Under the pieces are notes generated by a model. It did not search any database, had not been told where the DNA came from, and worked only from the letters and a program-made list of their open reading frames with translations. From sequence record PQ249395: a stretch of 64,000 bases of DNA; one strand, 5' to 3'. Below are positions 9,744-10,009 of the stretch, one piece after another. Position numbers and translations under genes: made by a program. The DNA is from Escherichia phage Pu-Krd-SF1. Position 1 is the stretch's first letter, and each line of letters opens with the position of its first letter.

Positions 9744-9929
9744 ATGAAAATGTATCAAGAATTTATCGTTGAAGCAGATGCCAAAGGTTCTAAATTTAAA
9801 GTTAAAGCTTTCATTGGTGATGCGGAAGACTTTGGCTCATTAAAACATAATGGGTATTCTTTCTTAGGTGGCGATGGTAAAGAAATCAAAACACCTATGC
9901 AAAACGTAGTGAAATTGCTTATGTTGTAG
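9744..9929 (+). CDS. internal-protein-like ORF, possibly frame-disrupted
   Basis: MKMYQEFIVEA...; stops at TAG 9927 while another frame stays open to about 10005. Confidence 0.4.
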   Translation: MKMYQEFIVEADAKGSKFKVKAFIGDAEDFGSLKHNGYSFLGGDGKEIKTPMQNVVKLLML

Positions 9930-10009
9930 CAAGTCCTAAAGTAGATGTTGACGATATTGGATATGATTTTAACAACTTCGGAATTATTTCTGGCGGTAAA
10001 GCTTAAACG

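Follow-up and report, generated by a model that had tools for sequence, protein, structure and literature searches.

The small open reading frame that follows denV in the phage DNA analysed here, a stretch of 64,000 nucleotides referred to as the window, is very probably a non-essential accessory gene that a recent and real mutation has put out of function. The window derives from a T-even phage of the RB69 group (Mosigvirus). The ORF at 9744-9929 on the plus strand opens with ATG at 9744 and encodes MKMYQEFIVEADAKGSKFKVKAFIGDAEDFGSLKHNGYSFLGGDGKEIKTPMQNVVKLLML over 61 codons before TAG at 9927-9929, exactly as described in the first-pass annotation, an earlier reading of the same DNA that identified the ORF by its first residues, MKMYQEFIVEA. 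Comparison of the sequences identifies it as the 5' part of an orthologue of RB69 ORF125c (NP_861815.1, 'internal head protein', 86 aa), an intact gene whose product reads MKMYQEFIIEADAKDPKFKVKAFIGDAEDFGSLKRNGYSFLGGDGKEINTYAKRSEIAYVVVSPKVDVDDIGYDFNNFGIISGGQA; the orthologues in phages JK36 and 348Ecol098PP are likewise intact. The window gene shares with RB69 ORF125c its place directly after denV, ~96% nucleotide identity, the start region, the N-terminal targeting sequence (CTS) and the C-terminal coding sequence. It differs in a +2 insertion after codon 48 with the resulting 61-aa product, in a private R35H replacement (9847) and in a private TATAAATA box upstream. The features of the locus are collected in Table 1.

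Table 1. Window coordinates of the disrupted gene, its signals and neighbouring genes, and of the ORFs opening with a CTS motif.
Feature	Position	Strand	Remarks
nudE	8006/8021-8461	+	
Lysozyme gene e	8499-8987	+	
Small CTS-bearing ORF	8984-9265	+	
denV	9324-9737	+	
Perfect T4 late-promoter box TATAAATA	9708-9715	+	matches T4 consensus; 28 nt 5' of the ATG, inside the 3' end of denV
Shine-Dalgarno-like AAGGA	9736-9740	+	read from the sequence; 3 nt 5' of ATG 9744 and 9 nt 5' of ATG 9750
Truncated target ORF	9744-9929	+	orthology with RB69 ORF125c over codons 1-48; missense, out of frame, over codons 49-61 (KTPMQNVVKLLML)
CTS MKMYQEFIVE	9744-9773	+	prohead protease cut predicted after Glu10, before Ala11
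AAAA run, frameshift site	9888-9891	+	holds the 2-base insertion; ancestral AA, from alignments to intact genes
Premature TAG	9927-9929	+	made by the frameshift; bases lie within GTA GCA (Val-Ala) in the ancestral frame
Remnant of the ancestral 3' half	9890-10007	+	in the other frame; NTYAKRSEIAYVVASPKVDVDDIGYDFNNFGIISGGKA plus TAA 10005-10007
ipII-like gene	10071-10373	+	
ORFs with CTS motif	986-1258, 1319-1627, 4715-5281, 8984-9265, 9744-9929, 10071-10373, 55644-55808		motif match

The lesion and the two reading frames

Alignment of the DNA with that of intact genes revealed that the frame is lost through a +2 insertion converting ATCAACACC of the intact form to ATCAAAACACC of the window in the A run at 9888-9891 (CAAC to CAAAAC). 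The insertion lies 36 nt upstream of the premature stop and shifts the frame after codon 48; apart from this one event, the window gene and its intact orthologues differ by SNPs only. The first-pass annotation had proposed that a one-base indel separates the ORF from a product of ~85 aa. The size agrees with the 86 aa of the intact protein, whereas the indel comprises two bases when aligned to the intact genes. The description of the gene as frame-disrupted was borne out relative to the 86-aa form: in place of a single uninterrupted frame of 84-87 codons ending ...FGIISGGKA, the window gene loses that frame after codon 48 and reaches a stop at codon 62. The 38 codons remaining downstream of the insertion, within the remnant at 9890-10007, are identical in sequence to intact haplotypes such as that of SF3, and since they are free of further lesions the insertion event is judged to be young.

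A second frame is open from 9881 to the TAA at 10005-10007 (42 codons) and reads RNQNTYAKRSEIAYVVASPKVDVDDIGYDFNNFGIISGGKA. Its existence had been claimed from about 9926 to about 10005, and the stretch proved to be longer than that. In DNA of 34% G+C a 42-codon open stretch is on its own only mildly unusual, with ~3% expected from base composition and 5.7% of the stop-to-stop segments in the window being as long. Length alone is thus insufficient, and the frame is considered non-random because it is homologous to the C-terminus of intact orthologues, the tail residues NTYAKRS...GGKA being identical to the C-terminus of the 86-aa proteins of JK36 and 348Ecol098PP. No ATG, GTG or TTG start was found in the out-of-frame tail, and separate translation of the tail is therefore ruled out.

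Production of a full-length protein would instead require that the two frames be joined, and a -1 shift anywhere in 9881-9926 does so, with shifts near the insertion giving a near-native protein with one extra residue. It is exceedingly improbable, however, that a programmed -1 frameshift or transcriptional slippage restores the protein in this way. A basis for recoding is lacking because the slippery heptamer X_XXY_YYZ occurs nowhere in frame within 9744-9929 and the A run is just four long; known runs supporting transcriptional slippage are far longer than four A. In addition, the arrangement is not conserved, with ~140 relatives encoding the protein in one frame, and other lineages break the gene elsewhere and in differing directions.

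The signals for translation of the first frame are in place. The AAGGA element overlaps the stop codon of denV, and in the records PQ759885-7, identical to the window here, the annotated 'internal head protein' begins at 9750, the second ATG. The start at 9744 is favoured over that at 9750 because orthologues from other genera have the first ATG only, giving MKTYQEF or MKTYEEF. With the translation signals intact and the 9744 start favoured, the 61-aa protein is probably still made. The late promoters at 8465 and 8478, which precede e, may drive its transcription. The TATAAATA box was found only in phages SF5, SF6 and SF7, with TACAAATA in all 14 other phages compared, and the two differ by a synonymous TAT/TAC change in a Tyr codon of denV. 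Since the box is restricted to SF5, SF6 and SF7, a new late promoter may have arisen there upstream of the pseudogene and the ipII-like gene.

A separate change was observed at 10035, where one A is inserted in a -10-like element upstream of the ipII-like gene (TGGTATAAT to TGGTAATAAT). Of the phages compared, only SF5, SF6 and SF7 have it; at this position JM17 carries another insertion, of 2 nt. The corresponding sequence of relatives resembles a T4 middle or early promoter, with a CGCTTAA MotA-box-like motif, 12 nt and TATAAT.

The intact protein and the truncated product

The internal-protein-like character assigned to the gene in the first-pass annotation is supported by the CTS-type N-terminus, a match to PHROG 2667 and the site between denV and the ipII-like gene. 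A CTS is defined by an aromatic residue at position 4, Phe7, Ile or Leu at position 8 and Glu10 followed by a small residue (PMC9026906, section 2.6), and the sequence MKMYQEFIVE|A contains Tyr4, Phe7, Ile8 and Glu10 followed by such a residue. Residues 4 and 7 of the CTS function in targeting and residues 8 and 10 in processing by the prohead protease gp21, whose cut falls after Glu; for packaging, the 10 N-terminal residues of IPIII are enough (PMC9026906). PHROG 2667 ('internal head protein') was matched with E = 1e-21 by the intact form and E = 2.6e-11 by the truncated form, and a search of Pfam returned zero family matches. The gene lies in the variable e/denV/ipII-ipIII region in the order nudE, e, internal protein gene, denV, target and ipII-like gene.

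At least 80% of the protein is covered in 213 of 215 records, and most full-length DNA matches have the intact length of 262 nt. The dN/dS values of 0.13-0.25 between genera indicate that the intact gene is under purifying selection. The family comprises 12 clusters at 90% identity in 5.8 billion proteins, with 8 matches among 1.84 billion representatives; its distant members (33-41% identity) all bear a CTS, most being ~95 aa long and one 194 aa. The ORF at 1319-1627 of the window also matches PHROG 2667, yet its similarity to the target beyond the CTS is weak (34% over 53 residues) and paralogy between the two was rejected. The motif M-K-x-Y/F-x-E-F-I/L-x-E opens seven ORFs of the window, the target and six others (Table 1). 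The one at 55644-55808, distant from the internal protein loci, encodes 54 aa with a Gly/Ser-rich middle and a Lys/Glu-rich tail, and is a possible gp67/gp68-type component of the prohead core.

An AlphaFold2 model of an intact member (mean pLDDT 83, ~88-92 over the mature part) predicts a compact β1-α1-β2-α2-β3-α3-β4 domain behind a disordered CTS. Comparison of the fold with the PDB using Foldseek gave nothing at E ≤ 0.001, the best match having E = 0.26 to generic α/β sandwiches; a fold search of BFVD returned family members only, and a sequence search of the PDB nothing below E = 0.1. Kinship to T4 IPI*, the GmrSD inhibitor, or to any solved structure was ruled out, there being neither a sequence match nor a significant fold match.

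The internal proteins of T-even phages are a diverse injected set with the CTS alone in common, of which IPI* is a restriction inhibitor (PMC3012670). The intact protein resembles those of T4 in its N-terminal MKTYQEFIAE-type CTS with the critical residues kept, its small size, its location in the variable e/denV/ip region and its non-essential accessory character. Sequence similarity ends at the CTS, and the mature intact protein is predicted to be acidic (pI 5.7, 8.1 kDa) whereas the T4 internal proteins are described as basic (PMC9026906). The protein probably travels inside the phage head and enters the cell along with the DNA; by analogy with T4 IPI*, its role would probably be a host-specific counter-defence or takeover function. 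A search for literature on RB69ORF125c or on virion proteomics of Mosigvirus internal head proteins found nothing. The C-terminal region of the intact protein includes the peptides SEIAYVVASPK and VDVDDIGYDFNNFGIISGGK.

The ancestral 86-aa protein would have entered the prohead core, lost its CTS when the prohead protease cut after Glu10, and passed into the host together with the DNA. Duplication of AA at 9888-9891 shifts the frame after codon 48 and brings the TAG at 9927 into frame, leaving a gene that should still be transcribable and translatable into a 61-aa product with the CTS. Because the targeting sequence is retained, this product may be packaged and trimmed to a fragment of 51 residues (pI 9.1). 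The frame is lost between β2 and α2, the product consisting of the CTS, β1-α1-β2 and 13 unrelated residues, while the elements from α2 to β4, including the most conserved motifs, are absent according to the model and the alignment. Lacking α2, α3, β3 and β4, the fragment would most likely be inactive, and since half of the confidently predicted α/β domain is gone the truncated product is most likely non-functional.

The retained CTS also allows for a different reading, in which the 61-aa product (51 aa without the CTS, pI ~9) is a functional new short internal protein kept by selection; this is considered quite unlikely. A 10-residue CTS suffices to package foreign proteins (PMC9026906), and the truncated product has it intact, but behind it are only β1-α1-β2 of the seven-element domain and 13 random residues, with the conserved C-terminal motifs gone. 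The presence of the allele in at least three phage lineages from two countries, and the remnant having undergone no further decay despite at least three backgrounds, are also in its favour and leave some room for a function of the product or the DNA, although no conservation of the new tail beyond identity by descent was seen. SF5, SF6 and SF7 have gained the perfect late-promoter box just upstream, and JS09-type phages keep a mini-version of 36-38 aa composed of the CTS and the last 26 residues; however, truncation points vary among lineages, as simple inactivation predicts.

Reality, distribution and origin of the insertion

The window is 100% identical over 25 kb to Escherichia phage Pu-Krd-SF6 (PQ759886.1), which derives from piglet faeces in Russia and was propagated on E. 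coli B. A 65-nt query spanning the insertion site matched the +AA allele exactly in 6 of 146 phage records, those of SF5, SF6, SF7, JM10, FL23 and FL44, with the insertion absent from about 140. Termination of homologues at the equivalent of codon 61, named in the first-pass annotation as the sign of an undisrupted gene, was found only in the five other +AA records. JM10, FL23 and FL44 are from Danish pig faeces and were sequenced in a separate laboratory by Illumina MiSeq 2x250 (PMC12032242). Over the first 20 kb of the window SF5 and SF7 differ from SF6 by 1 SNP and 0 indels, with AAAA in all three and zero differences in homopolymer length among the three assemblies over 20 kb. In SF3, another phage of the Russian laboratory, the gene is intact (AA) on the same local haplotype. 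When 248 RB69 ORFs, comprising all ORFs of at least 45 aa from RB69 8000-76000, were compared with the whole 64-kb window, the match was split over two frames in ORF125c only. Against this, an allele-specific 31-mer had 0 matches in IMG/VR, in which the relatives are mostly the same isolate genomes, and the exact 59-aa truncated product was absent from a large public assembly collection.

It is very improbable that the true sequence is AA with an intact 86-aa gene and that the insertion is an error of sequencing or assembly. The change does sit within a short A run, and the further 1-nt A insertion private to SF5, SF6 and SF7 lies 145 nt downstream at 10035; however, AA to AAAA is not known as a typical error of any sequencing platform. 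The records of SF5, SF6 and SF7 are all from one laboratory and were judged from assemblies, but the three separate assemblies agree, SF3 of that laboratory shows AA, and ORF125c is the sole split ORF across 64 kb relative to RB69. The same insertion is shared by three Illumina MiSeq assemblies from the unrelated Danish laboratory. Of the two explanations offered in the first-pass annotation, sequencing error was rejected, given six assemblies from two laboratories with the Danish ones produced by MiSeq, and a decaying copy is favoured by the same agreement. Judged from the assemblies, +AA is a real allele.

The carriers of this allele that were compared (SF6, JM10, FL23 and FL44) have an identical core of 187 nt at 9848-10034. 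The states 9964T, 10008C and 10009G associated with the core differ from those of five intact comparators with the same gene arrangement, and the same 187-nt core without the insertion is present in SF3 and 348Ecol098PP. Outside the core the flanks of JM10 are just 80-86% identical to the window, SF5, SF6 and SF7 have private changes at 9710, 9789, 9847 and 10035, and most of denV is gone from the Danish +AA phages (window 9333-9629 deleted). The simplest reading of these sequences is that the insertion occurred once on the core haplotype and was then moved between genomes by recombination; a recurrent, independent origin of +AA could also account for its distribution. The junction between the target and the ipII-like gene was rejected as a marker of common descent: it is uninformative because 72 records share it, many with an intact gene.

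The denV deletion occurs in JM10, FL23, FL44, FL12 and JM17 between the direct repeats AATTATGACCCGT (9321-9333) and AATTATGCCCCGT (9631-9643), and in FL12 and JM17 it is found together with an intact target gene. That the split denV of FL44 reflects a poor assembly was rejected, the deletion being clean between AATTATG(A/C)CCCGT repeats and common to JM10, FL23, FL12 and JM17.

Several other differences were observed within the window. Between 20000 and 25000, SF6 differs from SF5 and SF7 by 195-196 SNPs, together with a group of small indels, almost all of them at ~22-25 kb, a pattern that identifies a sharp recombination mosaic boundary between sibling isolates. At 18432, in the CDS at 18237-18680, SF3 has one extra A in an A6 run; this 444-nt ORF of the window is annotated in SF3 as a 213-nt 'homing endonuclease' fragment, a frameshift between sibling phages. 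An HNH endonuclease gene (2281-2889) lies directly upstream of tRNA-Leu, at the place occupied by tRNA-Gln in SF3 and FL44. The tRNA cluster extends over 2896-4284, and ARAGORN detected 8 tRNAs in the window with tRNA-Gln not found among them; insertion of, or replacement by, the homing endonuclease may have removed tRNA-Gln. In the ORF at 33052-33474 (140 aa), the frame in which RB69 is matched changes between the first 119 residues and the C-terminal ~24, which points to a frame difference between window and RB69 near its 3' end.

Repeated loss of the gene among related phages

At least five other independent frame-breaking lesions of the 261-nt gene, together with in-frame and fusion deletions, were found in other phages and in metagenome contigs. 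UFV13 has -TT in GGGTATTCTTTC and Lutter +T in the same run. SF2-1 combines -T in ACCTATG with -A in GTGAAATTG, and ECO07P1 combines -1 in a T/C run with the same -A as SF2-1. In JS09, TU01, UGJNEcP1 and HEMP5 a 147-nt in-frame deletion between GGTCCTAAA-like direct repeats results in a protein of 36-38 aa. The protein database contained further forms: P0009 is frameshifted after LGG, P0010 is shifted more than once, P0004 has an in-frame deletion KR...KR, P0011 a deletion GPK...SPK, and P0012 fuses denV(1-30) to the C-terminus of the internal protein. Eight ENA and Logan assembly contigs contain the -T allele (P0007) in the same gene context. Of the 171 gene-matching records, 60 were sampled at even spacing, and among these 5 of the 55 full-length copies were frame-broken; 14 of the 171 records match less than 80% of the gene.

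The mini-ORF of the JS09 type (JS09_057, PHROG 35655) is the same gene in the same place, but its deletion is in-frame and keeps the CTS and the last 26 residues with the frame unshifted. PHROG 35655 ('unknown function', 38 positions) appears to be a remnant of this in-frame deletion and not an independent family. RB69 ORF149c and ORF148c are a comparable case, in which a CTS-bearing gene of the internal protein type is likewise frameshifted in one lineage and intact in another; it differs in that another gene is concerned, with the broken copy in RB69 and the window copy intact. The window copy is the intact CTS-bearing ORF of 188 aa at 4715-5281 (MKTYAEFLTEAAKLPSE...), which in RB69 (NC_004928.1, 73428-73990) is split into these two ORFs, which overlap.

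Where T4-type genomes are plastic, loss of non-essential genes is to be expected (PMC2839356; PMC9026906). The lesions, which include +AA, -TT, +T, -T, -A, two in-frame deletions and the denV::IP fusion and come from several countries and from metagenome contigs, were also weighed as possible evidence that the losses were selected and not neutral. According to this proposal the protein would be sensed by a defence system of some gut E. coli, acting as an abortive-infection trigger, and +AA would be an escape allele that recombination carried from one T-even phage of the pig gut to another; the proposal is considered unlikely. The case is an ordinary one of recent pseudogenisation, in a dispensable accessory gene that related phages have lost repeatedly.

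The practical value of the finding is mostly one of annotation. The 59-61-aa CDS annotated as 'internal head protein' in PQ759885-7 and its equivalents in JM10, FL23 and FL44 are what a frameshift has left of an 86-aa gene, and their records should mark them as disrupted. For the biology of these phages, the locus is a further example of the fast turnover among the injected internal proteins of T-even phages, with a specific null allele circulating among pig-associated phages in two countries. Were the loss shown to be adaptive, recognition of the protein by some host factor would be suggested.
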